Of a stretch of DNA of 64,000 nucleotides, positions 3,732 to 57,847 are shown piece by piece. Location of the stretch: positions 1,746,633 to 1,810,632 of the forward strand of contig CAVZZO010000003.1 in the NCBI GenBank assembly GCA_963779755.1, read 5' to 3'. This stretch comes from an uncultured Gemmatimonadales bacterium. GTDB lineage: Bacteria; Gemmatimonadota; Gemmatimonadetes; Gemmatimonadales; GWC2-71-9. The notes below the pieces were generated by a model that did no database searches, had not been told where the DNA came from, and saw nothing but the letters and a program-made list of their open reading frames with translations. Within the stretch, counting starts at the first letter, position 1. Each line of letters opens with the position of its first letter. Made by a program: the position numbers and the translations under genes.

Positions 3732-3909
3732 ATCCACCTCCGGGGCTGAAGGGAACAGGGGAGGTAACATAGGCGGGAAGTCGGGAAGGCGGAAAGTACT
3801 CCGAGCCTGGGGCCGGGCCGCTTCGGCTGGGCGACACCCGGGAAGCGGCCGTCTATGGCGCCCGGCGGTCCCGATTCCTAGCTTCAGGGGATACCCTGGA
3901 GGACGACGC

Positions 3910-6084
3910 ATGGCCGAAGCCCCCCCGCCCATGCCCGACCTGGTCGACCCGTTGCTGGAATCGCTGCGGGAGGCGACCATCGGCGATTATGAAGTCCTGG
4001 CCGAGCTCGGCCGGGGCGGCATGGCTGTGGTGTACCTGGCGCACGACCTGGCGCTCGACCGCAAGGTGGCCATAAAGGTCATGCTGCCGGCCCTGGTGCA
4101 GAGCGAAGGTTCCGCCGAGCGCTTCAAGCGCGAAGCCCGCACCGCAGCCTCGCTGACCCATCCGAACATCATTCCCATCTACGCGGTCCGGCACCAGGAC
4201 GTGCTGCTCTACTTCGTCATGCAGTTCGTGGCCGGGCGCACGCTCGATTCAATCATCGAGGAGCGGGGGCAGCTGCCGGTGGCCATGGTGCAGGACATCC
4301 TCACCCAGGTGGGCGACGCGCTGGCCTACGCGCACCGGCGCGGGGTCATTCACCGGGATGTGAAGCCGGGCAACATCCTGCTGGATGAAGACGGCCGAGC
4401 CATCGTGACCGATTTCGGCATTGCCAAGGTCAGTTCGGCCGAGAGCCTCACCCAGACCGGCGGCGTGGTCGGCACCCCTTCCTATATGAGTCCGGAACAG
4501 TGTACCGCCTCGACGGTCACCGGGGCGTCCGATCAGTACTGCCTCGGGCTCATCGGCTACGAGATGCTCACCGGGAAGCAGCCCTTTACCGGCGCCACCG
4601 CGGTCCAGCTCATGTTCAGCCGCTGCACCGAAGACCCACCGCCTCTCGAGAAGGCGCGGCCTGATTGCCCCCACCATATCACCGAGGCGATCACCCGGAT
4701 GCTGGCCCGGGAAGCGGCGGATCGCTGGCCTCACATGGCCGACGCGGTGGCGGCGGTCGGCAGCCCGTCCACCGGGGAACGCGAGCCCATTCGCCAGGAG
4801 ATGGCGACGCTGGCCCGTACCGGAACCTCCGCGCGGATCTTCAAGGCCATGCGGACGCCCACCAGCCCGATCCCGGCCGCGCGCGCGACCAGCAGCAGCC
4901 CGGCCGTTCCCGCAACCAGCACCGCGGCCGTGGCTGTCCCCCGGGCCCTGCTGTATGCGTTTCCGGCCGTACTGCTCCTGGCCGTTGCCGGGTGGGTCCT
5001 GCTGCGGGGGCGCGCGCCGGCCCCGGTGCAGGCGCCCGCCCCGGCGGTGGCCGCCGATACTTCCGACCCTGCCCCTGCCCCTGCCCCGGCAGCGGCGGTG
5101 GCGCGTGTCCGCCTCTCGCCCGCCGGGGCAGTGGCACTCGAGGCCGGAGGCACCGTCCAATTGTCCGCTACCGCCCTGGATGCTTCAGGGAAGCCGGTTC
5201 CGGACGCGGGCATCGAGTGGGGATCGAGCGATTCGTCGGTCGCGGTCGTGTCGCCGGCGGGTGTGGTGCGGGGAACAGGTCCCGGCATAGCTACGCTGAC
5301 GGCGCAAAGCCGCGGGAGCATCAGCGCAACGGCGGTCACGGTCCGCGGGCCGCCGGCTCCGCCGCCGGCGGCCCGCCAGGCGCCGGCGCGCCCGGCAGCT
5401 TCCACCGTGGCGGCGCTGAGCCTGGTCGCGCCGGCGGAAACGCTGGGAATCGGGGGCGTAATCCGACTGCGGGCCACCCCCGAGGACGAGGCGGGCCGCG
5501 CCCTCGAGGGGCAGGAGTTCTTCTGGTCCTCCAGCGCGCCACGGGTCGCCAGCGTGGGCGAGGACGGCACCGTGACTGCGCAGGGCGCGGGCAGCGCCAC
5601 CATCACGGCCACCACGGGCGGCGTCTCCCGCAGTGTGAAGCTGACCGTGCTTCCGGGCGCGGCCCCGGCGAAGCCGGCGCCGGATACCGCCACTTCAGCA
5701 CCCGTGGCGGCCGCGACGCCGCCGCCAGCCGCTCCCCCTGTGGCCACCGCGGAGGAAAACCGCCGGGCCATCGCCACCGTTCTCGCCGCCTTCAGGACGG
5801 CCGTGGTCTCCCGTGACATTACCCGGCTGCGGCGAGCCTATCCCGGCATGACCCAGCCGGAAGAACAAGCCTATCGCGAGCTGTTCCAGAGCGGCGGCCA
5901 GTTCGATCTCGAGCTGGCGTCGGAGACGCCCGACATTCAGGGCACGACCGCGGTGGTGACCGGCACCGCCCAGTACCACTATACCGAGCCGCGGAAGCTG
6001 GAACAGGCGTTCAGCTACCGGGCGGTACTCGACGGCTCTTCCGGAAACTGGCGACTGACCTCGATCGTTTTCGCCCAGCAGTAG
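3910..6084 (+). CDS. Ser/Thr protein kinase with one TM segment, two Big_2-like Ig domains and a C-terminal NTF2/SnoaL-like domain
   Basis: Start at ATG 3910. Hanks motifs GRGGMAVVYLA, VAIKVM, HRDVKPGNILL, DFGIAKV, GTPSYMSPEQ. TM segment LLYAFPAVLLLAVAGWVLL. Two Ig-like repeats (VQLSATALDASGKPV..., IRLRATPEDEAGRAL...). Confidence 0.85.
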   Translation: MAEAPPPMPDLVDPLLESLREATIGDYEVLAELGRGGMAVVYLAHDLALDRKVAIKVMLPALVQSEGSAERFKREARTAASLTHPNIIPIYAVRHQDVLLYFVMQFVAGRTLDSIIEERGQLPVAMVQDILTQVGDALAYAHRRGVIHRDVKPGNILLDEDGRAIVTDFGIAKVSSAESLTQTGGVVGTPSYMSPEQCTASTVTGASDQYCLGLIGYEMLTGKQPFTGATAVQLMFSRCTEDPPPLEKARPDCPHHITEAITRMLAREAADRWPHMADAVAAVGSPSTGEREPIRQEMATLARTGTSARIFKAMRTPTSPIPAARATSSSPAVPATSTAAVAVPRALLYAFPAVLLLAVAGWVLLRGRAPAPVQAPAPAVAADTSDPAPAPAPAAAVARVRLSPAGAVALEAGGTVQLSATALDASGKPVPDAGIEWGSSDSSVAVVSPAGVVRGTGPGIATLTAQSRGSISATAVTVRGPPAPPPAARQAPARPAASTVAALSLVAPAETLGIGGVIRLRATPEDEAGRALEGQEFFWSSSAPRVASVGEDGTVTAQGAGSATITATTGGVSRSVKLTVLPGAAPAKPAPDTATSAPVAAATPPPAAPPVATAEENRRAIATVLAAFRTAVVSRDITRLRRAYPGMTQPEEQAYRELFQSGGQFDLELASETPDIQGTTAVVTGTAQYHYTEPRKLEQAFSYRAVLDGSSGNWRLTSIVFAQQ

Positions 6085-6105
6085 CCACTCTCAAGCGGGG
6101 GGTAC

Positions 6106-7443
6106 ATGCGCCGTCCAGCGCTCGTCCTGTTCATCCTGCTCTCTGCGGCAGCAGGCCTCCACGCCCAGGATCAGACTCTGCGGGATCGTATCACCGGGTT
6201 GTTCATCTTCGGGCCCGGTGAAGACCCGCTCTTTCTGGCCGGCACCGCCGATCCGGACAATCCCGCCTCCATTCAGGCGCACGGGAGCCATTTCGTTCCC
6301 TCGGCGGTCAGCGCCAACGGCAGCCTGATCCTCTTCCTGGGCAGCGCCATCGGCGCCAATATCGGGAACCTGCCCATCAGCGCCACCAGCAGCGGCACCA
6401 CCTTCCGCCTTCAGGCCGGGGTTCCCGTGCCCACCAGCACCTCGGCGGGCCCGATCTTCGCCGAGCGGGCGCAGACCATGGGCCGGGGGCGGGTGTTCGT
6501 GGGCGCCGGCGTCAGCGTGTTTCATTTCAAGAGCCTGCGGGGCGTGCCGCTGGACAACGTGCACCTCAACTTCACGCACGTGAATGCCGACTTTCCAGGT
6601 TGCGACAGCGTCTTCGGCGGGGACTGCTCCAGGATGGGTATCCCCCAGTTGGAGAACGATGTCATCGGGCTCGACCTCAACCTCGGCGTCAATGTCCGGG
6701 CCACCACTCTGGCGCTGACCTACGGCCTCACCGACCGGATCGATATCGGCGTGGCGCTGCCGCTGGTGACCGTTTCGGTTCAGGGGGTCAGCAACGCCCA
6801 GGTTATTCCCTTCGGCCCCAACATCGCCCACTTCTTTGCCGGTACCGTGGACAATCCGGTATTGACGGCGAGCCGGTTCGAAGAGGGATCGGCCACCGGC
6901 CTGGGAGACGTGGCGGTGCGGGCGAAGCTCGGGGTGAGCGAGTCGGCCCGGGCGCGCTTCGCCATCCTGGCCGACGCCCGGCTTCCCACCGGCAACAAGG
7001 ACAATTTTCTCGGATCGGGGAACTACGCCCTGCGGGGGGTGGGCATCGTGTCGGCCCAGTTCGGCAACTTCTCCCCGCACGCCAATGTGGGCTACCTCTA
7101 CCGCTCGGGGGCCCTCAACAACGACTACTTCCTGGCGACCGCCGGTTTCGACCATCTGCTCGCCCCCTGGGCGACGCTGGCGGTGGATCTCGTCTCCGAG
7201 CTCCAGGTCGGCGTGAACCGCCTGCGGTTACCGGGGCCGGTGGTCTACGATGCGCCATTTCACCGGACGGTGCAGCCCAGCTCCATTCCCAACAGCCCGG
7301 ACGACCTGATCAACGGTGCCGTGGGGTTCAAGTTTCTCACCGGGCCGGGCCTCACCATCGTGACCAACGCCCTCATCCCGCTCAACCGGGGCGGGCTCCG
7401 GCCCGACGTGGCCTGGACCGCCAGCCTGGAATACAACTTCTGA
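6106..7443 (+). CDS. outer-membrane beta-barrel protein (MetA-pathway/transporter-like OMP)
   Basis: Signal peptide MRRPALVLFILLSAAAGLHAQ. Alternating beta-strand pattern. Aromatic C-terminus ...ASLEYNF. Confidence 0.6.
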   Translation: MRRPALVLFILLSAAAGLHAQDQTLRDRITGLFIFGPGEDPLFLAGTADPDNPASIQAHGSHFVPSAVSANGSLILFLGSAIGANIGNLPISATSSGTTFRLQAGVPVPTSTSAGPIFAERAQTMGRGRVFVGAGVSVFHFKSLRGVPLDNVHLNFTHVNADFPGCDSVFGGDCSRMGIPQLENDVIGLDLNLGVNVRATTLALTYGLTDRIDIGVALPLVTVSVQGVSNAQVIPFGPNIAHFFAGTVDNPVLTASRFEEGSATGLGDVAVRAKLGVSESARARFAILADARLPTGNKDNFLGSGNYALRGVGIVSAQFGNFSPHANVGYLYRSGALNNDYFLATAGFDHLLAPWATLAVDLVSELQVGVNRLRLPGPVVYDAPFHRTVQPSSIPNSPDDLINGAVGFKFLTGPGLTIVTNALIPLNRGGLRPDVAWTASLEYNF

Positions 7444-7889
7444 TGACCGACACCTCCAGGAAACCGCGAGTCAGCGCCGAGGTACCGCGCGACCAGTCCG
7501 AGGCAGCCCGGGCCAGCTTCGAGCGGTGCTGCGCGTCGCCCGATTTCATCCCGACCTTCTATCACCTCTTCTTCACCGCGTGCCCCGAGGCAAAGGCACG
7601 GTTCGAAGCGACGGATTTCTTCCGCCAGCATCAGCTGCTGCGCCACGCCCTGCGGCTGCTGCTGCTCTACCCCAACCGCCCCGAAGCGGAAGGCCACGAC
7701 CTGCTCCGGCGGGTCGCCGAGCGGCACAGCCGCCGCGACCTGGATATCCCACCGGAGCTCTACCCGCCCTTCGTGGACAGCCTGATCCGGGCCGTGGCGC
7801 GGTACGATCCGGAGTGCAACGAGGGTATCGAGGCAGCCTGGCGGGCAACCATCCGCGGTGGGGTGGAGTACATGAAATCGCGGTACTAG
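7443..7889 (+). CDS. single-domain globin-like protein
   Basis: 148 aa. ATG 7443 overlaps the upstream stop (TGATG). Globin landmarks are TFYHLFFTACPEAKARF, FFRQHQ and the proximal-His context VAERHSRRDL. Confidence 0.6.
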   Translation: MTDTSRKPRVSAEVPRDQSEAARASFERCCASPDFIPTFYHLFFTACPEAKARFEATDFFRQHQLLRHALRLLLLYPNRPEAEGHDLLRRVAERHSRRDLDIPPELYPPFVDSLIRAVARYDPECNEGIEAAWRATIRGGVEYMKSRY

Positions 7890-9169
7890 TCCGCGCTCCT
7901 CAGTTCCTGCAATCGCTCCTCCAGGAACCGGCGCTCCGGTTCCTGTGCCGCAAGATCCAGGGCCCGCTGGAACGCGGCGGCCGCTTCGTTCCTGCGACCC
8001 AGCCGGCGGAGCAGCTCTCCCCGGGCGGAGTGGGCCAGATGATAGGCGCCGAGCTCCCCCCGGTCCAGGATGCCGTCAATGAGCCCGAGCCCCGCTCCTG
8101 GCCCGTCGCGCATGGCGATGGCCACCGCCCGGTTGAGCTCGACCACCGGCGTGGGCTCCACCCGGAGCAGCACATCGTACAGACCGGCGATCTGCGGCCA
8201 GTCGGTAGCATCCGGTGTCGCGGCCTCCGCGTGCAGCGCCGCGATCGCCGCCTGCAAGGCATAGGGCCCCGCCCGTCCCGACCGCAGCGCCCGCTCGACC
8301 AGCGACGTACCTTCGGCAATCTGCTCCCGGCTCCAGAGGGTGCGGTCCTGGTCTTCCAGAAGCACGATGGTGCCGTCGCCGCTCGTGCGCGCCGGTCTCC
8401 GGGAATCGTGCAGCAGCATGAGCGCCAGGAGACCCAGGGTCTCCGTGTCGGGCAGCAATTCGACCATCTCCCGCCCCAGCCGGATCGCCTCCACCGCAAG
8501 GTCGGTTCGCGTCACCGCATCTCCTGCGGTGGCGGCGTAGCCCTCGTTGAAGACGAGATAGATCACCTGGAGGACCGCGTCGAGTCGCTCCGGCAGTTCG
8601 GCCCGCGAGGGGACCTCATAAGGAATGCCCGCATCACGAATCTTGGCCTTGGCCCGGACGATCCGCTGGGCGATGGCCGGCGTCCGGCTGAGATAGGCCC
8701 GGGCGATTTCCTCGGTCCGGAGCCCGCAGACCTCCCGGAGCGTGAGCGCGACTCGCGCCTCGGGCGACAGGGCCGGATGGCAGCAGGTGAAGATGAGGCG
8801 GAGCTGGTCGTCCCGCACCGCCTCATCGTCCACCTCCGGCGGCGGCCCGGCTTCGCTACCCAGGCGATCGGCGATCGCCCCCCGGGCGGCATCGAACCGC
8901 GCCGCCCGTCGCAACCGGTCGATCGCACGGAACCGCCCGGCGGACACCAGCCAGGCGCGGGGGTGGGCCGGCACGCCCTCGGCCGGCCACCGCTCCACCG
9001 CGGCGGCAAAGGCTTCCGCGAGCGCCTCTTCGGCCAGATCAAAATCGCCGAGCAGGCGGATGAGGGTCGCCAGGATCCGCCGGGACTCGGACCGGTAGAG
9101 CGCACCGATCCGCTCGGTCAGGTCACTCCCGGGACACCGGCCCGGGCCGCGAAGGGAGACAGACGGCAC
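7886..9169 (-). CDS. ECF sigma factor with C-terminal TPR-like extension (ECF42-type architecture)
   Basis: 427 aa, GTG start. Sigma-70 region 2 and region 4 motifs (LAEEALAEAFAAAVERWP; LTLREVCGLRTEEIARAYLSRTPAIAQRIVRAK) plus an extension of ~230 aa. A YciI/DGPF gene lies 2 nt upstream. Confidence 0.85.
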   Translation of the reverse strand: MPSVSLRGPGRCPGSDLTERIGALYRSESRRILATLIRLLGDFDLAEEALAEAFAAAVERWPAEGVPAHPRAWLVSAGRFRAIDRLRRAARFDAARGAIADRLGSEAGPPPEVDDEAVRDDQLRLIFTCCHPALSPEARVALTLREVCGLRTEEIARAYLSRTPAIAQRIVRAKAKIRDAGIPYEVPSRAELPERLDAVLQVIYLVFNEGYAATAGDAVTRTDLAVEAIRLGREMVELLPDTETLGLLALMLLHDSRRPARTSGDGTIVLLEDQDRTLWSREQIAEGTSLVERALRSGRAGPYALQAAIAALHAEAATPDATDWPQIAGLYDVLLRVEPTPVVELNRAVAIAMRDGPGAGLGLIDGILDRGELGAYHLAHSARGELLRRLGRRNEAAAAFQRALDLAAQEPERRFLEERLQELRSAD

Positions 9170-9171
9170 GG

Positions 9172-9528
9172 CTACTCCACGCTGAACTCCCGGATCGGCC
9201 GCACCTCGACACTCCCGAAGCGGGCGGACGGGATGCGCGACGCGACCTGGATGGCATCGTTCAGGTCCCGCGCCTCGATCAAGTAGAAACCGCCGAGCTG
9301 CTCCCGGGTCTCCGCGTAGGGACCGTCAGTGGTGGTCGCCTTCCCGTTTCGCACCCGGATGGTGGTCGCCGTCTGGACCGGCTGGAGGGCCTCACCACCC
9401 AGATGGTGGCCGCTCTTCATGATGTCCTTCGTGTAGGCCACGTACTCCTGGTGTATCGCCTCCCGGTCGGGCCCGGACATTCCGTTGATCGTCGCTTCGT
9501 TGTCATAGATCAGGCACAGGTATTTCAT
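9172..9528 (-). CDS. YciI/DGPF-family protein
   Basis: ATG 9528 preceded by GGAGG. MKYLCLIYDNE...TTDGPYAETREQLGGFYLIEA is typical of the YCII family. Confidence 0.8.
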   Translation of the reverse strand: MKYLCLIYDNEATINGMSGPDREAIHQEYVAYTKDIMKSGHHLGGEALQPVQTATTIRVRNGKATTTDGPYAETREQLGGFYLIEARDLNDAIQVASRIPSARFGSVEVRPIREFSVE

Positions 9529-9572
9529 GGTGTCCTCCAGAGGAGAGATCAGGAACCGTCGGACACCAGCTA

Positions 9573-9599
9573 GTCGACTGGCGAGCCACCATTTCGACA
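9573..9599 (-). promoter_or_regulatory. candidate ECF-type promoter TGTCGA-N16-TCGAC upstream of the YciI-sigma operon
   Basis: Minus-strand TGTCGA (9599-9594), a 16-nt spacer, then TCGAC (9577-9573). It lies 44 nt upstream of ATG 9528. Confidence 0.6.
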
Positions 9600-9693
9600 C
9601 ACCGGCTCCAGGAATTCCCGCCAGCCTGGAACGGCTCCGATACTGCAATGGGCTAGAGCGTTCCCCTGATTCCCGGTTCCCGATTCCTGATCC

Positions 9694-10204: not shown

Positions 10205-10350
10205 GGCGGTATGGCGGTATGAGGCGGTACGGCGGTACGGCGGTACGGCGGTACGGCGGTACGGCGGTACGGCGGTACGGCGGTACGGCGGTACGGCGGT
10301 ACGGCGGTACGGCGGTACGGCGGTACGGCGGTACGGCGGTACGGCGGTAA
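10205..10350. repeat. 8-bp microsatellite (GGCGGTAC)n, 18 units
   Basis: 15 perfect GGCGGTAC units (10223-10342), two GGCGGTAT variants (10205-10220) and one GGCGGTAA (10343-10350). The array starts 17 nt upstream of the DinB start codon. Confidence 0.95.
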
Positions 10351-10455: not shown

Positions 10456-10491
10456 GATATATTGAGACCCCCCAACCCCGAGGAGCGTACC

Positions 10492-11607
10492 ATGGCCGGA
10501 GTCCGGGTACTGGTCGGCACGCGCAAAGGCGCGTTCATCCTGACCTCCGACGCGAAACGTGCAAAGTGGAACATCAGCGGGCCGGAATTCGCCGGCTGGG
10601 AGCTGTACCACCTCAAGGGCTCGCCGGCCGACCCCGACCGGATCTACGCCTCCCAATCGAGCGGCTGGTTCGGCCAGACGATGCAGCGATCCTGCGACGG
10701 GGGGAAAACCTGGGAAACGGTGGGCAACAAGTTCGTCTACGACGGGGTGCCCGGCACCCACCAGTGGTACGACGGCACCGCGCATCCCTGGGAGTTCAAG
10801 CGGGTCTGGCACCTGGAGCCTTCGCTCACCGATCCGGACACCGTCTACGCCGGGATCGAGGACGCGGCCCTGTTCAAGTCCACCGATGGCGGCCAGAACT
10901 GGGAGGAGGTCTCCGGCCTCCGGAAGCACAGCACCGGCTCGGCCTGGTCGCCGGGTGCGGGGGGCATGTGCCTGCATACCATCATCCTCGATCCGGTGAA
11001 CCCCGGGCGGATCTTTACCGCCATCAGCGCGGCGGGTGCCTTTCGCTCGGACGACGGAGGCGACACCTGGAAACCCATTACCAGAGGACTGGTTTCCAGT
11101 TTTCTGCCGAACCCCACCGCCGAGGTAGGCCATTGCGTGCACCGGATCGCGCAGCATCCCTCGCGGCCCGACACGCTGTTCATGCAGAAGCACTGGGACG
11201 TCATGCGCAGCGATGACGCGGGCGACAACTGGCACGAGGTGAGCGGCAACCTGCCGACGGACTTCGGCTTTGCCATCGATGTGCACGCCCACGAGCCGGA
11301 GACCATCTACGTGGTCCCCATCAAGAGCGACGCCGAGCACTTCCCGCTGGAGGGCAAGCTCCAGGTGTTCCGGAGCCGGAGCGGCGGCAACGAATGGGAG
11401 CCGCTCACCCGGGGCCTGCCCCAGCGTAACTGCTACGTCAACGTGCTGCGCGATGCCATGGCGGTAGACCGGCTGGACGACTGCGGCATCTATTTCGGCA
11501 CCACCGGCGGGCAGGTGTACGCCTCGGCCGATTCGGGCGACAGCTGGACGCCGATCGCCGAGCACCTGCCGCCGGTCTTGTCGGTCGAGGTTCAGACACT
11601 GCAATGA
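10492..11607 (+). CDS. BNR/Asp-box repeat beta-propeller protein (sialidase-like fold), no signal peptide
   Basis: ATG 10492 after GAGGAG. Six Asp-box-like motifs: [54 protein letters not shown]. Confidence 0.8.
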
Positions 11608-15126: not shown

Positions 15127-15170
15127 GAGCAAAGGGCTGGGAGAAAAGCGCTTTTCTCTCAGTCCTTTTG
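15119..15170. terminator. bidirectional terminator-like palindrome between convergent genes
   Basis: Inner palindrome GAGAAAAGC/GCTTTTCTC and outer GGACTGAGAG/CTCTCAGTCC. It shares a ~25-nt tail (TCTCTCAGTCCTTTTG.CCTT.CTC) with the hairpin at 11924. Confidence 0.6.
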
Positions 15171-16439
15171 TCCTTTCTCCCTATTCCGGCATTCCGTGGC
15201 GCGCTGGAGCAGGAGCCGCCGCTCCCGCTCATTTTTCGTCAGCTTCGCCGCCCGCTCGAATTCCTCACTCGCCTCGACATTCCGCCCCAGCTTCTGCAGC
15301 AGGTCGCCGCGCACGCTGGGGAGCAGGTGATAGTTCCGTAGCGATTTCTGCTTCGTGAGCGGTTCCACCAGCGCGAGCGCGGCCTCCGGGCCTTCGGCCA
15401 TACTCACCGCCACCGCGCGATTGAGCTCGACCACGGGGGAGGGCATGAGCTGCGCCAGGGCGCCGTAGAGCATCGCGATTCTGGCCCAGTCCGTTTCCTG
15501 CGCCGAGCGCGCCCGCGCGTGGCAGGCGGCGATGGCCGCCTGGAGTGCGTAGGGGCCGGCAGCGCCGCCCAGCGCGTCCACCCGCTCCAGCGCCGCCAGA
15601 CCACGCTGGATGAGCAGGCGGTCCCAGCGGCCCCGGTCCTGATCCAGCAGCAGTACCGGCTCGCCGTCGGGGCCCACTCGCGCTCGGAGACGGGAGGCCT
15701 GAATCTCCATCAGGGCGATGAGCCCGTGTACCTCTGGCTCCTCCGGCGCCAGGGTCGCCAGGATGCGCCCCAGCCGCATCGCATCTTCGCAGAGGCCGGG
15801 CCGGACCCAGTCGTCACCCGCGGTCGCGGCATACCCCTCGTTGAAGATGAGATAGATCACCTCGAGCACCGAGGCGAGCCGCTCACTCAGGTCGTCCCCG
15901 CGCGGCACCTCGAAGGGCACCTTCGCGTCCGCCAGCGTCTTCTTGGCCCGGACGATCCGCTGCTGCAGGGTGGGAACGGGAATCAGAAACGCGCGCGCGA
16001 TCTCCTCGGTGGTGAGGCCACCCACCAGCCGCAGTGTCAGGGCGACCCGGGCTTCGGCGGAGAGCAGCGGGTGACAGGCGGTAAAGATCAGGCTCAGGAG
16101 ATCGTCACCGATGGCGTCGTCCAGCGCCGCCGCCGTCTCGACCTCCCGCTGCTGCTCCTCCTGCAGCTCGCCGCCCAGCTGCTGGTGCTTGCGATCCAGC
16201 ATCTGGTGGCGCCGGAGCTGGTCGATCCCCCGGCGCTTGGCCGCGGTCATGAGCCAGGCACCGGGGTTGTCGGGAATGCCCGATGCCGGCCACTGCTCCA
16301 GCGCAGCCAGCAGCGCGTCCTGGGCCAGATCCTCGGCCTGGCCCACGTCGCCTACCATGCGCGCCAGCCGGGCAATGATCTTCGCCGATTCCATGCGCCA
16401 GACGGCGTCGATGGTGGCGTGGATATGCGCGACCGTCAT
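15159..16439 (-). CDS. ECF sigma factor with C-terminal TPR-like extension (second ECF42-type paralogue)
   Basis: 426 aa, clearly paralogous to 7886-9169 (LTLRLVGGLTTEEIARAFLIPVPTLQQRIVRAK, AGPYALQAAIAACHA). Confidence 0.85.
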   Translation of the reverse strand: MTVAHIHATIDAVWRMESAKIIARLARMVGDVGQAEDLAQDALLAALEQWPASGIPDNPGAWLMTAAKRRGIDQLRRHQMLDRKHQQLGGELQEEQQREVETAAALDDAIGDDLLSLIFTACHPLLSAEARVALTLRLVGGLTTEEIARAFLIPVPTLQQRIVRAKKTLADAKVPFEVPRGDDLSERLASVLEVIYLIFNEGYAATAGDDWVRPGLCEDAMRLGRILATLAPEEPEVHGLIALMEIQASRLRARVGPDGEPVLLLDQDRGRWDRLLIQRGLAALERVDALGGAAGPYALQAAIAACHARARSAQETDWARIAMLYGALAQLMPSPVVELNRAVAVSMAEGPEAALALVEPLTKQKSLRNYHLLPSVRGDLLQKLGRNVEASEEFERAAKLTKNERERRLLLQRATECRNREKGQKD

Positions 16440-18305: not shown

Positions 18306-18716
18306 TTACTTCAACCGCTCCCGCAGCTTTGCCTCCCGCTCCTGCAGCTCGGGCGTAAACTCCTCGCCGAAATCCTCGAGTTCGAAGAAGGGGCGGATTT
18401 CCACCGTCTCCCCCTCTTCGAACGGCGCCCGCTTGAGCCATTCCACCGCTTCATCCACGGACTTGACCTGCCAGATCCAGAATCCGGCGACCAGCTCTTT
18501 GGTCTCCGCGAAGGGGCCGTCGATCACCCGCGGCTTCCCCGAACCGAACCGGACTCGTTTGCCCTTCGAGCTGGGTTGCAGACCGTCGCCCGCCAGCATG
18601 ATGCCGGCCTGGACCAGCTTCTCGTTGAACGTCCCCATCTTCTCCAGCAGTTCCCGCTTCGGCATTGCGCCGGCTTCGTATTCCTTGTTGGCCTTGACCA
18701 GCACGATGACTCGCAT
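18306..18716 (-). CDS. YciI/DGPF-family protein
   Basis: Start at ATG 18716, with AAGGAG upstream. MRVIVLVKANKEYE...VIDGPFAETKELVAGFWIWQV. Confidence 0.8.
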   Translation of the reverse strand: MRVIVLVKANKEYEAGAMPKRELLEKMGTFNEKLVQAGIMLAGDGLQPSSKGKRVRFGSGKPRVIDGPFAETKELVAGFWIWQVKSVDEAVEWLKRAPFEEGETVEIRPFFELEDFGEEFTPELQEREAKLRERLK

Positions 18717-18779
18717 GATGCGGTCTCCTTGCAGCAGGTCGCTTTCCCGGCCGGGATATCTTCCCGGCTTCACTCCTGC

Positions 18780-18806
18780 GTCGATCGGGCGGGAGCGGAA
18801 TCGACA
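18780..18806 (-). promoter_or_regulatory. candidate ECF-type promoter TGTCGA-N16-TCGAC upstream of the second YciI gene
   Basis: Minus-strand TGTCGA (18806-18801), a 16-nt spacer, TCGAC (18784-18780). It lies 63 nt upstream of ATG 18716. Confidence 0.6.
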
Positions 18807-19159
18807 TCCCCGCCGGGGAGCGGACACCGTCTTGTCCGGTCTCTTCATCCCGGGTTCCCGCTCTCTTCACGTTCCCGCCGGTAAGTTTAGCCCTGTCGTT
18901 CCGTCGCCGTGCACGGCGGCGGGCGGCCGGTGGGGGAGTTTCGCAGAACCCCACCCGCATCAGGCCGGCGTGCTGATGCGCCCTATCGGATCCAGGATGC
19001 GACCTGGCGACCGACAGCGCCCGCAACGGAACCCCGTGTACCGTAAGGTCAACGCGGGAACCGGTGCCTCCAAAGCCCACCGACGGATCCTGTACGGGGT
19101 CCGGCGAAGCGGAGGAGAGAAGAACGGAGCCCAAACCTCCGACCCGGATGACCGATGCG

Positions 19160-19196
19160 CATCGGGGCGGCCCGTCAGAGACGAGCCGCCCCGATG
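19160..19196 (+). terminator. strong isolated hairpin (12-bp perfect stem) in a gene-free region
   Basis: CATCGGGGCGGC / GCCGCCCCGATG with a 13-nt loop, followed by ATTTAT. Confidence 0.45.
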
Positions 19197-19353
19197 ATTT
19201 ATGTCCGCAGATTACACAGAAATCGGTCCCACAGATTACGGGATTGATTCCGCCCAGCGGTCGTCTCCGATGCGGCCCGCGGCCGGCCCTCCTGGGGGGT
19301 GGACTCATGTTTCGCCCTTCGGCCGCTGAGCGAAGCCGCGACAGACTCCTCCC

Positions 19354-19838
19354 GAAGATGATCCGGTATGGGGCGCAGCTCTGCGGAGCGAAGAACGAGG
19401 CTCGGAGCAATCTGTGTAATCCGTGGATCACACATGATAAACTGTCTTCTCAGAAGATGATCCCGGTGTGGGGCGCAGCTCTGCGGAGCACGAACGAGGC
19501 TCGGAGCAATCTGTGTAATCCGTGGATCACACATGATAAACTGTCTTCTCATAAGATGATCCGGTATGGGGCGCAGCTCTGCGGAGCACGAACGAGGCTC
19601 GGAGCAATCTGTGTAATCTGTGGATCACACATGATAAACTGTCTTCTCAGAAGATGATCCGGTATGGGGCGCAGCTCTGCGGAGCACGAACGAGGCTCGG
19701 AGCAATCTGTGTAATCTGTGGATCACACATGATAAACTGTCTTCTCAGAAGATGATCCGGTATGGGGCGCAGCTCTGCGGAGCACGAACGAGGCTCGGAG
19801 CAATCTGTGTAATCTGTGGATCACACATGATAAACTGT
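19354..19838. repeat. tandem repeat, 5 copies of a 98-99 bp unit
   Basis: Units start at 19354, 19453, 19552, 19650 and 19748 and are nearly identical. Each contains TGTGTAATC-N4-GATCACACA. The unit is about 52% G+C by hand count. Confidence 0.95.
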
Positions 19839-19984
19839 GATCTCACACCGGACCCATCCTTCAAGTCACCGGACTGCCCGCCCACCCCAGGACAACAGCA
19901 ACGGATCACCCGGAGAAACCCGGGTGACCCGTCCAGAGGTGAAGCAATCCAGATATCCGGGGATTGCTCCGGCAGAGCTCTGTT

Positions 19985-20710
19985 TTACATCTTCTTCGGC
20001 GGCAACAGCACCGCGTCAATCACGTGAATGATGCCGTTACTGGCCGGCACGTCGGCGGCGATCACGTTGGCGGACTTGTCGCCCACATGGACCTTGTCAC
20101 CCGCCAGGTGAATCCGCAGATCACTCCCCTGCACCGTCTTGAGCGTCACGTACCCGTCCTTGTCTGCCCGGGTCTTGAGGTCGGCGGCGGTGAGGCGGCC
20201 GGCCACTACATGATAGGTCAGCACTGAAGTCAGCGCGGCCTTGTCCTGGAGCAGCCCGGCCAGAGTGCCTTCCGGCAGCTTCGCAAAGGCGGAGTCGGTC
20301 GGCGCAAAAACGGTGAACGGTCCGGCGCTGTTAAGCGTCTCCACCAGGCCGGCCGCGGTCACCGCGGTCACCAGCGTATTGAACTGGCCCGCCCCCACCG
20401 CGGTCTCTACGATCGTTCCGGGCGGCGCCATGTCCGGCATCTGCGCCTGCGCCGGCGTCACTGCAACCAGCGCCAGCAGGGCCGCGGCTGCCATCGCTGG
20501 GGCGCGTCTCATCCAGCGCTGCTGAATCGCCTTCCACTGGAACACCTGCCAGACCGCCGAAACACCCACCAGCAGATACACGACCCGGCTCAGGGCGCTG
20601 CCGGTGCCGAAGAGCGCGCCCACCACATCAGGCCCGCCCGCCCCGATCAGCCCCCAGTTCAGACCGCCAATCACTAACAGCACGGCGGCCAGGATATCGA
20701 GCTTCTTCAT
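19985..20710 (-). CDS. DUF378-like membrane domain fused in frame to a fasciclin (FAS1) domain
   Basis: The N-terminus [23 protein letters not shown] is DUF378-like. An internal [24 protein letters not shown] looks like a signal peptide. A FAS1 body follows ([26 protein letters not shown]). Confidence 0.75.
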
Positions 20711-20730
20711 GATTACAGCCCCCTTTTTGT

Positions 20731-20838
20731 GGTAAACGTTCGTCTAGCTCCTGTCCAAGAAACTAAGCCGAGTAGCTGGTAATGTCAAGCATTTGTTTAA
20801 CTATTTAGCTTGACATGAGTTAGACGGCAGCGTATTAT
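20731..20838. promoter_or_regulatory. divergent promoter/operator region
   Basis: Plus strand: TTGACA 20810-20815, 17-nt spacer, TATTAT 20833-20838, then 7 nt to ATG 20846. Inverted repeat ATGTCAAGC (20782-20790) / GCTTGACAT (20808-20816). Outer pair CGTCTA (20731) / TAGACG (20821). Confidence 0.7.
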
Positions 20839-20845
20839 TGCCACC

Positions 20846-43272: not shown

Positions 43273-45318
43273 CTACCGTGCCGTTTCCTTTCCGGCCTGC
43301 CGCGCCGCCCGCCATTCGTCCCGGGCGAGACGTTTCACGTCAATCCCGTGCTTCAGTTTCAGCGTGGCCTCGGTCATGAACAGGGCGGCGTCCACTCCCG
43401 TCTCCACCGCCAGGTAGTCGTCGATCCATTGCTGGCGTTCGGGGTACTCGGCGGTCAGGATCACGTTGAGCAACGCGACCTGCAGGAACCCGATCTGGGT
43501 GGAGGTCGGCGGGTACTCGGTGACCGCCCGATCCAGGTAGAGCCCCCGGCGCCTGGCCATCCGCAGTTCCGACCGGCGGATCATGAGGTCGTCCCGGCTG
43601 TCGTCGTCCGCCTCGCAGGGGAGCGGATCCGGATTCGGAGCCGGATCGGGCAGCGAGAGCGGCGCGTCGCTGCGGGGGGCTGTGAGCGGCAGCAGCTTCA
43701 GGAAATCCGCGGCGGCCTGATCCCGGTCGGTGAGATGCCCGATCCCACACAGGGTCTCCACCGTTTTCAGCATGGAGGTGTGATCGTAGGTGGTGTGGTC
43801 GATCACGCCCCGGCGGGTATAGGGCGAGATCACCAGGGCGGGCACGCGGACGCCGAGCTGGTCGAACTGGAAGCCGAACTGCGAGTAGGCCGCCGTCTCC
43901 AGGTCGCCCGGGGGCACCGCCGGCCCCGGCGGGGCATGATCGAAAAACCCTCCGTGCTCATCGAAGGTGACCAGCAGGAGGCTGTGCTCCCAGTGCGGCG
44001 AATTGCGGATCGCCTCGTAGACGTCCTTGATGAGGCGCTCGCCCCGGGTCACATCGTCCAGCGGGTGCATCGAGTTGCCGCAGGCAAAGTCGCCCGGGCC
44101 GGTGACGTCGAACTTGTGGGCCCCGTACTTCGGCTCGATAAAGACGAACTTGTAGCCGAAGGCCTCCGACTGGACCTCGGACGCGAAATCCTCGAAGTCC
44201 TTGAAGCGCCCCTGGAGCCGGTTCAGGTTCATGCCCTTCATGGCGAAACTGACCGGGAAATCGTCCCCCTCATAGATCCGCCAGGGAATGCAGTTGGCGT
44301 CCAGCAGGTCGAAGATGTTGCCGTTTTCGAACCGGTACCCTTCCACCGTGGTGGAGGTCACCACGTCCCACTTGTCCGGACTCCCGTCCAGGCCGCCCGA
44401 GGTGCCTGCCAGCAGAAAGAAGCGGTTGGGCCAGGTGGGCCCGGGCAGCGAGGAGAACCACTGGTCGCACACCGCGAACTCCCGGGCCAGGCGGTTGAGC
44501 ACCGGCAGCTGCTCGGGGGAGAAGCAGCGCATGATCCGTTCGGGGGTGGGCGATCCGTTGTCCCGGTAGTTGGCGATGAACCCGGAGTTGTTCACCGGAG
44601 GATACCCGCCAGGCACCGGGTTGTAGACGGCCCCCTCCCCGCACAGCGCCACCACCGTCTCCTTGAACTCGTGGCCCGGATCCTTGTCCACCCCTTTCAG
44701 CTGAAAATCGGCCGGGCTGCTGACCAGCACCGGCAGCCCCGTGATGGGGTTGATGTTGCTGGTGGCGAGCGGGTCGAACCCGGGGTTGAATACGGTGGGA
44801 TTGCCGTCGGGATCCACTCCGGCGATGCCGCTGAAGCCCAGCATGTGATCGAAGCTCCGGTTCTCCAGCATCAGGACAAAGACGTGCTCGATGCGCGGCG
44901 GCCTCCCTTTCCCCCGTCCGAAGAGCGACCCGATCGCGCGGATCAGTCCGAGCAGGGCGCACCGCAGCGTGTCCCACGCCACGCAGACCAGCTGCAGCGC
45001 CCACGAGAAGACGACGCAGAACGCCTTCACCACCCAGGCGAAGGCCTTGCAGACCCACTTCGCCACCCAGTACCAGGCCTTGCACACCCACTTGGCCACC
45101 CAGTAGTACGCCCGGCAGAAGAACCCGGCGATACAGTTCCACGGCGTGTACCAGTGGCACTTCTCCCAGGACGTACAGTGACTCGACCCCTCGTCGGCCC
45201 ATTCCGAGCACTGATTCGACCCTTCGTCGGCCCAGCTGGTGCACTCGTAATCGACCTGCGAACTCCAGTTCTTGCAGGTAATGACGAAGGTGTCGACCCA
45301 TTTGGTGCAGGTGGCCAT
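43273..45318 (-). CDS. phosphoesterase-family protein (phospholipase C / acid phosphatase AcpA family) with a novel Cys/Trp-rich N-terminal module
   Basis: 681 aa. VLMLENRSFDHMLG and TFDEHGGFFDH motifs. ATG 45318 is preceded by GGAAGGAGAG. N-terminal residues 1-120 are described in the findings. Confidence 0.8.
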   Translation of the reverse strand: MATCTKWVDTFVITCKNWSSQVDYECTSWADEGSNQCSEWADEGSSHCTSWEKCHWYTPWNCIAGFFCRAYYWVAKWVCKAWYWVAKWVCKAFAWVVKAFCVVFSWALQLVCVAWDTLRCALLGLIRAIGSLFGRGKGRPPRIEHVFVLMLENRSFDHMLGFSGIAGVDPDGNPTVFNPGFDPLATSNINPITGLPVLVSSPADFQLKGVDKDPGHEFKETVVALCGEGAVYNPVPGGYPPVNNSGFIANYRDNGSPTPERIMRCFSPEQLPVLNRLAREFAVCDQWFSSLPGPTWPNRFFLLAGTSGGLDGSPDKWDVVTSTTVEGYRFENGNIFDLLDANCIPWRIYEGDDFPVSFAMKGMNLNRLQGRFKDFEDFASEVQSEAFGYKFVFIEPKYGAHKFDVTGPGDFACGNSMHPLDDVTRGERLIKDVYEAIRNSPHWEHSLLLVTFDEHGGFFDHAPPGPAVPPGDLETAAYSQFGFQFDQLGVRVPALVISPYTRRGVIDHTTYDHTSMLKTVETLCGIGHLTDRDQAAADFLKLLPLTAPRSDAPLSLPDPAPNPDPLPCEADDDSRDDLMIRRSELRMARRRGLYLDRAVTEYPPTSTQIGFLQVALLNVILTAEYPERQQWIDDYLAVETGVDAALFMTEATLKLKHGIDVKRLARDEWRAARQAGKETAR

Positions 45319-55987: not shown

Positions 55988-57847
55988 ATGCACAGCGACG
56001 CGCCCGGCCCCCGCCTGTCCCCTCCGGTCGACACCACCCGGGACCATATCTCGGGGCCGGTGGAGGCGCCGGCCACGCTGGTCGAGTTCGGCGATTACGA
56101 GTGCCCCTACTGCGGCCGGGCGCATCGCGGCATCATCCGCCTGCGGGACGAACGCCTGCCGGGGCAGCTGCGCTATGTCTTCCGCCACCTGCCCCATCCC
56201 CGCATCCATCCCCACGCCCAGCTTGCCGCGGAAGCGGCGGAAGCCGCGGCGGCGCAGGGCAAGTTCTGGGAAATGCACGACTGGCTCTTCACCCACCAGA
56301 ACGACCTTCACCGGGAAGGTCTGATCGCGGGCGCCGGCGCGATCGGCCTCGATGTCGCGCGATTCACCGGCGATCTCGACACCCACCGCTTCGGGGACCG
56401 CGTCCGGGAAGATGTGGACAGCGCGGCCCGGAGCGGCGCCCGGGCGACCCCGACGTTCTACGTGGAGGACCGGCGCTACGACGGTCCCTGGGATGCCGAG
56501 TCCGTACTCGAGGCCATCCGCAAACCGCTGGGCTGGCGGCTGCGCTTCCTCGCGCAGCAGTTCGCCGGACTCTCGATTTCGAGCGGGTTGCTCATGCTGC
56601 TCGCTGTCCTGCTGGCGCTGGGATGGGCGAACTCGCCCTGGGGCGACAGCTATCATCGCCTGTGGGCCACCGTCGCCGGCACCAGGATGGGCGGGCTGAA
56701 CCTGGCCCTCCCGCTGCGCGAGTGGGTCAACGACGGGCTCATCGTCATCTTCTTCCTGGTGGTGGCGCTGGAGATCCGGCAGGAAATCACCGCCGGCGAG
56801 CTGCGCACCGCGCGCCGGGCGGCGCTGCCGATCGCGGCGGCGCTCCTGGGCATGCTCTTCCCCGGGCTCATCTACCTCCTCTTCAATCACGGCGACCCCG
56901 CAGCCCACGGCTGGGGCGTCCCGATCGGGACCGACACCGCACTCGCCCTGGGCATCATGGCGATCCTGGGATCCCGCGTGCCGCTGGCCGTTGCGCGTGT
57001 TCGTCGCCGCGGCGGCGGTGGTGGACGACGTCGGTTCGCTCCTGGTCATCGCGGTGTTCTATACCGGGCATGTCGCGATCGCCCGGCTCCTCATTGCCCT
57101 CGCGCTGTGGCTGCTGGCGCTTGGCCTCAACCGCGCGCGGGTGTACCGGACGCTGCCCTACGCCGTGATTGGGGTGCTCCTCTGGCTGGCGGTGCTGGGC
57201 TCCGGCGTCCACCCGACGCTGGCGGGCGTGCTGATGGCGTTCGTGATCCCCAGCCGCCGGCCACCCAATACCGGCACCCTGCTGGAACAGTCGCAGTCCC
57301 TGCTAGCTGAGCATGGAGGCGCCCACCATGGGAAAACCGAGCCCGGCAACATACACGGGCCGCCGTGCGTGCGCTGGAAGAGGTGGTTGACCGCCTGCTG
57401 TCTCCCGCGCAGCGGCTCACCCGGAACGTGCAGCCGTGGTCGGCCTATCTGGTGCTGCCGGTGTTCGCCTTCGCGAATGCGGGGATCGCGCTGCGGCTCC
57501 ATGTCCAGGAGCTGCTCCAGCCAATCAGCCTCGGCATCTTCCTGGGCCTGGTCGTGGGAAAACCACTGGGGATCTCGCTCGGCGCCTGGCTGGCGACCCG
57601 GCTTGGCGTCGCCACCAAGCCCGACGAGATCGCCTGGCAGCAGCTGGTGGGCGCGTCGGTGCTCTGCGGCATCGGGTTCACCGTCGCGTTCTTCGTGGCG
57701 GACATCACGTTCCAGGACCCGCCCACGCTGGCGCTGGTCAAGACCAGTGTGCTGGTGGCGTCGCTGGTGGCGGGTGTAGCGGGGTGGCTGATCCTGCGCT
57801 CGGCGTGGGGACGGGGTTCGAGCGAGCGGACGGCGCCGGCGGAGTAG
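55988..57847 (+). pseudogene. nhaA: DsbA-like thioredoxin domain fused to Na+/H+ antiporter NhaA; two frame disruptions
   Basis: FGDYECPYCGRA (CxxC) is DsbA-like. The NhaA body is split over three ORFs: ...GTDTALALGIMAILGSRVPLAV | RVFVAAAAVVDDVGSLLVIAVFYT...GVHPTLAGV | ...QPWSAYLVLPVFAFANAG...CGIGFTVAFF. The shifts are at ~56988 and ~57335. Confidence 0.75.

Follow-up and report, generated by a model that had tools for sequence, protein, structure and literature searches.

The 64,000-nt stretch of DNA analysed here in full (the window) belongs to a 1.82-Mb contig (CAVZZO010000003.1) of an uncultured Gemmatimonadales bacterium, and between two of its genes it carries a tandem array of five 98–99-bp units, the subject of this analysis. 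The upstream flanking gene (19985..20710, minus strand) encodes a protein with DUF378 and fasciclin domains according to Pfam, and this exact protein is on record. The downstream flanking gene (18306..18716, minus strand) encodes a YCII-domain protein of 136 aa, also identified with Pfam, whose start at 18716 was confirmed by exact-product look-up, and it is the first gene of a YCII-DoxX-(unknown)-DinB-ECF (extracytoplasmic function) sigma cluster. Both genes lie on the minus strand with an intervening spacer of 1,268 bp, which places the array in the 3′ region of the fasciclin gene. In its makeup the window is normal chromosomal DNA from a bacterium rich in G+C, and one named homologue at 69% identity likewise suggests membership of the Gemmatimonadota. 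Pfam assigns to it TPR-domain Ser/Thr kinases, TonB receptors, Ig-like surface proteins and two clusters that combine ECF sigma (DUF6596) with YCII, and Pfam scans of its roughly 40 open reading frames (ORFs) returned no partition, replication, transposase, integrase or phage genes.

Tandem Repeats Finder reports a single array at 19354–19845 with a period of 98, 5.0 copies, 97% matches and a score of 917. Repeat search and alignment place unit 1 at 19354–19452 (99 nt), unit 2 at 19453–19551 (99 nt), unit 3 at 19552–19649 (98 nt), unit 4 at 19650–19747 (98 nt) and unit 5 at 19748–19845 (98 nt). A preliminary description made from the letters alone had proposed five tandem repeats with these same starts, and the agreement extends to its account of small indels in the first two units, each of which carries its own, separate 1-nt insertion in the alignment. 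Any two units differ by 1–5 changes; units 3–5 are closest to one another (1–3 positions), and the outer two units are the most diverged of the array. The estimate of about 52% G+C against a higher background was likewise accurate, the computed values being 52.4% (0.524) for the array and 68.1% (0.681) for the whole window. Repetition extends to the full 98-bp unit and leaves no unique spacers, and in this the array departs from the form of a CRISPR locus. Its form is that of a minisatellite of the MIRU-VNTR type (mycobacterial interspersed repetitive unit, variable-number tandem repeat), with five intergenic tandem units of 98–99 bp at 97% identity.

Could such an array be a product of assembly, by expansion or collapse? 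Two Logan contigs (L235 and L001, run ERR11718636), which derive from a different assembly, have flanks identical to those of the window and end inside the outermost units, at 30 nt and at ~37 nt, respectively. Breakage of short-read contigs at both edges is what an artefact might produce, but the breaks fall 30–37 nt inside the outer units, which is where a k=31 graph would fork on entering a genuine repeat. Moreover, substitutions and indels are distributed between the units in a consistent pattern and the array sits within a contig of 1.82 Mb. We therefore regard an assembly artefact, which the preliminary description had raised, as hardly credible; the exact copy number is the sole part of the array that could be wrong.

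The array is neither a gene nor an RNA family. ORFs within the spacer have G+C at third codon positions (GC3) of 0.57–0.63 compared with 0.83–0.84 in the flanking genes, in agreement with the earlier view of a gene-free gap, and no gene was found between the fasciclin and YCII genes. The exception in composition is an ORF at 18433–19197 (GC3 0.76), part of which lies antisense to the YCII gene. Each 98-nt unit also encloses an ORF of 33 codons, with its TGA stop overlapping the ATG that follows (ATGA). We rejected a coding reading of the gap: its ORFs are low in GC3, and the 33-codon frame lacks a ribosome-binding site, shows a GC3 of ~52% and is interrupted in units 1 and 2, the two of 99 nt. 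Translations of the unit in all frames had no match among 5.8 billion proteins. Rfam returned nothing over the window at gathering thresholds and only chance-level matches at E values up to 10. No sigma-70-like promoter was predicted in 18600–20100, and the terminator-like sites predicted in that interval are two, both outside the array. A TTGACA-N17-TATTAT promoter at 20810–20838, before the carH-like gene and ~1 kb from the array, implies that the organism does use such promoters. Folding single units gave z-scores of −0.1 to −1.4 against shuffled sequences, and folding the whole array gave no support either. With no Rfam match, no promoter or terminator in the units and folds this weak, the earlier suggestion of a tandemly reiterated small RNA (sRNA) is not supported.

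Each of the five units does contain the 9-bp inverted repeat that had been described, TGTGTAATC-N4-GATCACACA, which is complementary at 8/9 positions as DNA. This palindrome is real but is not the informative feature it was taken for, since its GATCACACA half is not conserved elsewhere, whereas a set of direct 9-mers is. The key feature of the units is a pair of head-to-tail 9-mers, AATCTGTGT-AATCTGYGG-AT. On the plus strand, this motif reads AATCTGTGT AATCCGTGG AT in unit 1 (19409..19428) and unit 2 (19508..19527) and AATCTGTGT AATCTGTGG AT in unit 3 (19606..19625), and further plus-strand copies lie in unit 4 (19704..19723) and unit 5 (19802..19821). The unit-1 copy, in '--->' orientation, matches the viral and bacterial consensus described below, and its T-to-C variant is found also in a Bacteroides locus (L114). 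Allowing one mismatch, AATCTGTGK matches the window 17 times, and 12 of these matches fall within 19205–19819.

An opposite arm lies at 19204..19239 on the minus strand and reads AATCTGTGG-gaccg-ATTTCTGTGT-AATCTGCGG-A, that is, three 9-mer-like repeats in '<---' orientation, tail-to-tail with the units. It corresponds to the partial inverted copies noticed previously upstream of the array, with 19204–19220 matching the unit at 16/17 positions and 19229–19239 at 11/11. Between this arm and the first unit is a unique spacer (19240..19353, 63% G+C) for which no relatives were found, and ~170 nt separate the arm from the first motif copy. Two hairpin regions frame these elements. A 13-bp G+C-rich hairpin at 19901..19932 (minus strand), 53 nt past the fasciclin stop and followed by TGCTGTTGT, is judged from its sequence to be a possible terminator for the fasciclin gene. 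The second region, at 19125..19196 (minus strand), comprises a 17-bp hairpin (19196–19160) and a further hairpin (19141–19125) followed by TTCTTCTCTCCTC; a terminator-like site is predicted there. The order on the minus strand is thus fasciclin stop, hairpin 19932–19901, five ATCCRCGGATTACACAGATT copies each within a 98-nt unit, ~170 nt of unique DNA, the arm AATCTGTGG-gaccg-ATTTCTGTGT-AATCTGCGGA (19239–19204) and the old terminator hairpins.

The closest relative on record (L010–L012), whose fasciclin protein is 76% identical, has the same neighbourhood, with epimerase-DUF2867, MerR-B12 and fasciclin genes and, further on, YCII and DoxX genes. In L010, only 25 nt separate the fasciclin stop from a 17-bp G+C hairpin equivalent to window positions 19160–19196, which is followed by a second hairpin with a T-rich tail. 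The two hairpins plus ~270 nt beyond them align with window positions 19200–18844 at 73% identity, and the region at 19125..19196 is accordingly an ancestral module kept in L010 directly past the fasciclin stop. Because that stop adjoins the old terminator module in L010, the window holds ~790 extra bases between gene and module. This lineage-specific DNA (19201..19984), which is missing in L010, contains the whole element, and the inverted arm at 19204 begins only 4 nt from the point where homology to L010 ends. More distant relatives have no comparable array, and other genes occupy the position there. A blastn search of 19197–19985 against plasmid and phage collections found no match. A remnant of the HPF/CSD gene, which in L010 lies between the conserved region and the YCII genes, was considered as a source of the extra bases and rejected, as its position differs and it shows no similarity.

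The adjoining stretch at 18844–19200 is itself a conserved non-coding sequence, with 73% identity over 369 nt to L010 positions 3909–4272. Its six reading frames score alike and give no coding signal, and it has no Rfam match. A hairpin at ~18911–18935 shows compensatory changes (cgccgccg-TGCA-cggcgacg vs cggtgtcg-TGCA-cggcacc), and the 19160–19196 hairpin, followed by ATTTAT on the plus strand, could terminate a plus-strand RNA of ~300 nt.

A nine-mer motif in bacteria and phages

The preliminary description had advised searching genomes and metagenomes for the unit and its palindrome. Run with the palindrome, such searches yielded chance matches and never an array: TGTGTAATC-N4-GATCACACA gave four single chance matches in the genome collection, and a version with R/Y degeneracy gave none in the viral collection and 51 single matches in metagenomes. 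The palindrome was accordingly discarded as a conserved signal. Only one of these matches (L017) was informative. It agrees at 26/27 bases and contains eight AATCTGTGK copies within 150 nt, which pointed to the direct 9-mers as the true signal. The unit's other half, GGAGCAATCTGTGTAATC, has no match in viral contigs, and the whole 98-bp unit has none in plasmid or phage collections. Occurrence of the unit nowhere else had been listed, beside free variation in relatives and a lack of transcripts or protein binding, as a refuting outcome; it is what was found for the whole 98-bp unit, but it does not hold for the core motif.

The 17-mer TCTGTGTAATCTGYGGA, common to the units and the upstream arm, occurs exactly in 40 IMG/VR contigs at 52 sites, whereas its reversed-sequence control occurs in 5 contigs. 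One tailed-phage contig of 29.7 kb alone has 11 copies of the 17-mer plus more of a relaxed motif. At nearly all viral sites the 17-mer is preceded by a third 9-mer that the search had not demanded. The resulting consensus is (A)ATCTGYGNN-ATCTGTGTA-ATCTGYGGAT, and the usual form is three tandem 9-mers, ATCTGYGNN x3, with GGAT at the end. The three-9-mer pattern is present at no fewer than 120 IMG/VR viral loci (at least 120 against 3 for the reversed control), an enrichment of ~40-fold over control in viral contigs. Matches to the 33-nt consensus were obtained in human-faecal phage contigs, in 13 Bacteroides finegoldii records (up to 4 places per record), in 7 Persicobacter psychrovividus replicons (7 places in one replicon of 1.07 Mb) and in plasmid 1 of Gemmatirosa kalamazoonensis, a member of the Gemmatimonadota, where the 1.1-Mb plasmid has one locus only. 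Many intergenic loci per genome are thus seen in B. finegoldii and Persicobacter, and one locus in the 64-kb window. No Rfam family covers the motif sites, and string searches of an incomplete literature library found no paper containing the sequence.

Two of the matched loci are peculiar in their own right. Positions 7078–7229 of L017 (VOFC01004878.1, Bacteroidales-like) hold the eight AATCTGTGK copies in both orientations, in 150 nt at 36% G+C, and contain two repeats of ~80 nt; part of this locus is 80% identical to a B. finegoldii locus, and it lies ~1.4 kb upstream of chromosomal-type parA/parB/DUF5683 genes. A contig from the metagenome-assembled genome of a giant virus (L115, 29% G+C) has at 6088–6320 a 9-bp satellite (TAGAATCTG) x 26, with some units reading ATCTGTGGA. 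This satellite fits the pattern yet looks unrelated, and matches therefore need the flanking architecture to count as members of the family.

That architecture has a fixed polarity. Among the triple sites examined, 18 of 19 pairs of opposite-strand neighbours less than 400 nt apart are tail-to-tail with their GGAT ends outward, such that the outer ends read ATCC(R)CAGAT and ATCTG(Y)GGAT. Their spacers, of 2–325 nt, differ in sequence and often contain a G+C hairpin of their own. The Gemmatirosa locus (L111) is a tail-to-tail pair with a 52-nt spacer that sits between a stop codon and the next start and forms a hairpin of ~100 nt (z = −8.7), and the Bacteroides locus L114 has 31-nt perfect arms, also tail-to-tail, around a 20-nt A+T-rich spacer. 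Solo arms exist too, in both orientations relative to genes. Segments bearing the motif are tandemly duplicated, as two copies with periods of 79–115 nt, in L116, L117, L119, L118/L120 and L090. The NN dinucleotides of paired arms mostly do not co-vary, which indicates that a 7-bp core at 9-bp spacing is conserved and not base pairing, and this in turn favours recognition by a protein.

Placement is intergenic and sporadic. The pairs of phage contigs L190 and L231 separate genes that run in the same direction, beginning 3–12 nt past a stop and ending 25–45 nt before the next start; in L190 one pair stands after the gene for the major head protein, and others stand ahead of genes for head closure and the tail. 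More generally, viral sites are often 5–45 nt upstream of start codons. L103/L104 represents a genuine tailed phage (portal, large terminase, methyltransferase) with one site just upstream of the terminase gene, and about one third of its sites point against the genes as called. In Bacteroides the motif occupies the carA/carB, alpha-2-macroglobulin/DUF1573 and rlmD/rluA spacers. Among orthologous carA-carB spacers, the motif is present in B. finegoldii, absent in Parabacteroides distasonis and, over the part inspected, absent in Phocaeicola massiliensis. Is there a protein that accompanies the motif? Clustering the ORFs within 7 kb of 40 viral sites revealed no family common to the viral loci, and comparison of the ORFs of L017 with those of the window revealed no shared family. 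As a separate observation, the P. distasonis carA-carB spacer (L127 425–542) contains a different repeat, with several ACCCTAAA(C/T)G(A/G)G(T/G)GTTTAGG-like units, and carA-carB seems to be a spacer in which short repeats land again and again.

Interpretation of the array

The findings above are best accommodated by the hypothesis that the array is a locally amplified arm of a palindromic intergenic element resembling either repetitive extragenic palindromic sequences (REP) and bacterial interspersed mosaic elements (BIMEs) or miniature inverted-repeat transposable elements (MITEs), a reading to which we give slightly better than even odds (probability of about 0.52). The canonical element would consist of two blocks of two or three 9-mers, tail-to-tail with GGAT outward, on either side of a variable spacer, and the layout in the window shows both the canonical tail-to-tail polarity of the family and its position after a stop codon. 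We propose that a palindromic element of 9-mer repeats and some anonymous DNA with it became inserted after the fasciclin gene, and that a 98-bp segment made up of the gene-proximal arm and ~80 bp of flank was then multiplied five-fold, presumably by unequal recombination or replication slippage. The amplification appears to be recent given that units 3–5 differ at only 1–3 positions. The 7-bp cores at 9-bp spacing would be read by a sequence-specific DNA-binding protein or by a protein of the transposase or recombinase type, in which case the locus offers at least 10 core sites in 620 bp. Of the ideas put forward in the preliminary description, an array of protein-binding sites comes closest to this picture. 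The likely effect would be similar to that of REP/BIME, namely a protein-bound or hairpin module in the 3′ region of an expressed gene, and the five-fold amplification itself may be neutral.

How well do known repeat classes fit? The REP and BIME elements of enterobacteria (BIME-2 arrays in particular) and REPIN doublets are short extragenic repeats present at many intergenic sites, often in operons just past a stop codon, and they occur as singletons, inverted hairpin pairs and sometimes local arrays with a period near 100 bp. The motif family is alike in being intergenic, in occurring as singletons, inverted pairs and local arrays and in its sporadic presence at orthologous sites. Inverted doublets with long hairpins and local clusters are both found within it (18 of 19 pairs, the Gemmatirosa hairpin at z = −8.7, the L114 arms). 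However, REP itself, which is linked to a RAYT transposase, is a palindrome, though an imperfect one, and has GTAG or CGTC as its head, whereas the arms of the family are direct 9-mers with a 7-bp core; REP sequences are lineage-specific, whereas the arm sequence here is common to phyla and phages; and orientations alternate in BIME-2, whereas the window array repeats one arm in one orientation. MITEs and transposon ends of the IS21, Tn7, Mu or Tn402 type offer a second comparison, with terminal inverted repeats of ~17–30 nt around a short non-coding or small cargo segment, repeated sub-sites in the arms, an insertion-like presence and, in the window, an inverted arm at the left edge of lineage-specific DNA. 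Here too there are differences. The interiors of the family are not conserved between copies, neither a transposase in the window nor a shared protein at the viral loci was found, inspection of the window, Gemmatirosa and Bacteroides copies gave no recognisable target-site duplication, and the 5′-TG...CA-3′ termini of the Mu/Tn7 group were not identified. The family comes closest in behaviour to these two classes but fails defining features of each, and we therefore file it as an interspersed palindromic intergenic repeat that has been locally amplified.

Other comparisons are partial. In MIRU loci the unit ORF has a stop overlapping the next ATG, and the window array resembles MIRU-VNTR in its near-identical intergenic tandem units between co-directional genes and in its ATGA-overlapping 33-codon ORF; it differs in that the whole unit is not found at other loci and the ORF is broken in units 1 and 2. 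The PeSL cassettes of T4-type phages are likewise conserved short modules recurring between co-directional phage genes, but the family has no early-promoter consensus, and integron attC sites share conserved outer ends, a variable centre, hairpin potential and a start just past a stop codon, but the family has no RYYYAAC/GTTRRRY core sites and the window no integrase. In both cases the likeness is architectural only.

Several considerations weigh against an amplified mobile arm. The insertion is deduced from a single relative whose fasciclin protein is no closer than 76%, and a cognate protein was not identified, none being common within 7 kb of the viral sites. The ~78 nt of the unit outside the ~20-nt core have no relative anywhere in the collections searched, which means that the amplified segment is mostly anonymous DNA. 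The window units hold two clean 9-mers in place of the usual three, and the window arms are ~170 nt apart, whereas most viral pairs are separated by 2–156 nt. Furthermore, the motif was seen at one locus of the source genome, of which 64 kb were read; the genome and metagenome collections were scanned with the palindrome pattern, that is, with the part that is not conserved; and the viral contigs may include host DNA.

One rival hypothesis is that the array is a neutral minisatellite or VNTR in which a random 98-bp piece of spacer slipped, such that the likeness of its core to the motif is meaningless at this locus. The two hypotheses give the array the same origin and differ only on whether the sites are used. 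Near-identical units of which the outer two are the most diverged, a whole unit that has no homologue, a period that is not a multiple of 3 and the lack of a promoter, terminator or convincing structure in the units are all expected of a neutral repeat. Nonetheless, we consider it unlikely, because the core matches a motif that is enriched ~40-fold over control in viral contigs and because a second arm, in the canonical orientation, is located at the very edge of the lineage-specific DNA. Another hypothesis, that these are regulatory sites of phage type (operators or promoter/terminator cassettes) left by a prophage or phage and now perhaps acting as a sink for a phage regulator, draws on the 29.7-kb tailed-phage contig with its 11 copies of the 17-mer, on the frequent location of the motif 5–45 nt upstream of starts and on the two-copy arrays in phages. 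It would not readily explain why Pfam scans of the 64 kb found no phage gene, why the 790-bp block matches viral loci in the motif only, why the Bacteroides copies lie between housekeeping genes or why about a third of the L103/L104 sites are oriented against the called genes, and we therefore hold it to be quite improbable.

The same locus might also act at the level of RNA, with the five arms in the fasciclin 3′ untranslated region pairing in turn with the single downstream arm, as alternative long hairpins that stabilise the mRNA or direct RNase III processing, or with the units acting as reiterated sRNAs. Such pairing is feasible, since the minus-strand unit hairpin UGUGUGAUC-CACA-GAUUACACA is fully paired via one G-U, arm-to-arm pairing is possible at 16/17 positions and in phages the pairs are embedded in polycistronic operons, one of them behind the gene for the major head protein. 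Yet the single-unit folds are not significant and match nothing in Rfam, the NN positions of the arms mostly lack covariation, solo arms and both orientations relative to genes exist, and a terminator-like hairpin stands between the gene and an array whose units have no promoters. In tandem sRNA arrays of the NsiR1, LhrC or CcsR type, every unit brings a promoter and terminator, or else a stable conserved fold cut out of a precursor; no promoter, terminator or significant fold was seen in the window units. We judge an RNA function to have a low probability. Lowest among the functional alternatives is a centromere-like site of the sopC/parS type or an iteron array at an origin, for which the chance is very slight. 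The F-plasmid sopC locus does consist of tandem direct repeats each with an inverted repeat, and low G+C content and a cluster of the motif in L017 ~1.4 kb from parA/parB-like ORFs point in the same direction. But sopC is a single plasmid locus of 43-bp units beside sopAB, whereas the window array is chromosomal, has 98-bp units without partition genes and shares its core with dispersed copies, including those in phages. No ParA, ParB or HTH_ParB domain was found among the ~40 window ORFs and no Rep, rep or dnaA gene in the 64 kb; the source contig measures 1.82 Mb; cumulative GC skew shows neither a switch nor an inflection at the array (19.5 kb); and the parAB genes of L017 are the ordinary chromosomal pair of Bacteroidales. 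Nor is the motif confined to centromere loci, as B. finegoldii, Persicobacter and one phage contig each have multiple sites, situated between ordinary genes or phage genes. The centromere reading of the preliminary description is thus not supported.

Recognition sites of familiar proteins were considered as well and rejected. A DnaA box was suggested by TGTGGATCA, which matches at 8/9 positions; it was dismissed because the bases after GGAT vary, CGCA replaces CACA across the family and the GC skew is flat. A CarH operator is not indicated, as the MerR-B12 gene has its own divergent promoter region (20711–20845) without the motif. Consensus sites for CRP, NtcA, LexA, IHF, Fur and sigma-E, compared by eye, did not fit.

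Taken alone, the array is a modest curiosity, and its significance lies in the core, which leads to a widespread 27-nt DNA motif whose sequence hardly differs between gut Bacteroides, a marine Cytophagales bacterium, a soil Gemmatimonadota replicon and more than 100 otherwise unrelated phage contigs. Sequence conservation of this degree, combined with a fixed polarity and sporadic placement, implies that a reader protein is conserved or that machinery for mobilisation is shared, and we know of neither for the ATCTGYG motif. We tentatively suggest, as a wider proposal with odds well short of even, that the ATCTGYG triplet element is an undescribed repeat class spanning phyla (Bacteroidota, Gemmatimonadota) and tailed phages that has a conserved reader and serves as a mobile intergenic boundary module, perhaps as a site of recombination and shuffling or as a protein-bound processing or termination module. 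If this were true, the window would be the most amplified copy so far, with ten same-orientation cores facing one opposite arm. The identity of the reader would explain a recurrent feature of phage operons and reveal whether the elements pass from phages to hosts or back. What genome annotation gains is a class of intergenic repeat that can be recognised and at which short-read assemblies break.

Neighbouring features of the window

The genes on either side of the array have features of their own. On the minus strand at 18780–18806, ~65 nt upstream of the YCII start at 18716, which is preceded by an AGGAG ribosome-binding site, is the sequence TGTCGA-N17-CGAC, which we take to resemble an ECF42-type promoter motif. 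The YCII cluster ends with an ECF sigma gene carrying DUF6596 (15159–16439), and a second YCII and ECF (DUF6596 plus TPR) pair is located at 7886–9648. On the other side, the fasciclin gene and the carH-like MerR-B12 gene diverge from a promoter region (20711–20845) that contains two inverted GCTTGACAT copies together with TTGACA-N17-TATTAT. The trio of MerR-B12, fasciclin-DUF378 and epimerase-DUF2867 genes is kept in all relatives fetched (L008–L012, L064–L068) and sometimes stands beside a photolyase gene, which suggests a light-regulated cluster.

Two further repeats were recorded in the window. An 8-bp microsatellite at 10205–10349, GGCGGTAC x 17.9 at 95% identity, lies just upstream of a BNR/sortilin-like gene (10462–11607) and is a candidate slippage tract. 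A 33-bp tandem repeat at 45016–45105, with 2–3 copies at 81–93% identity, is in frame within a phosphoesterase-family gene (43273–45318) and yields an 11-aa repeat. Finally, an NhaA-type Na+/H+ antiporter domain is split across 55988–57847: the ORF at 55988–57310 covers profile positions 3–146 and is fused to a thioredoxin/DsbA domain, and the ORF at 57365–57847 covers positions 241–374, an arrangement that could reflect a frameshift, a pseudogene or a mis-set ORF boundary.

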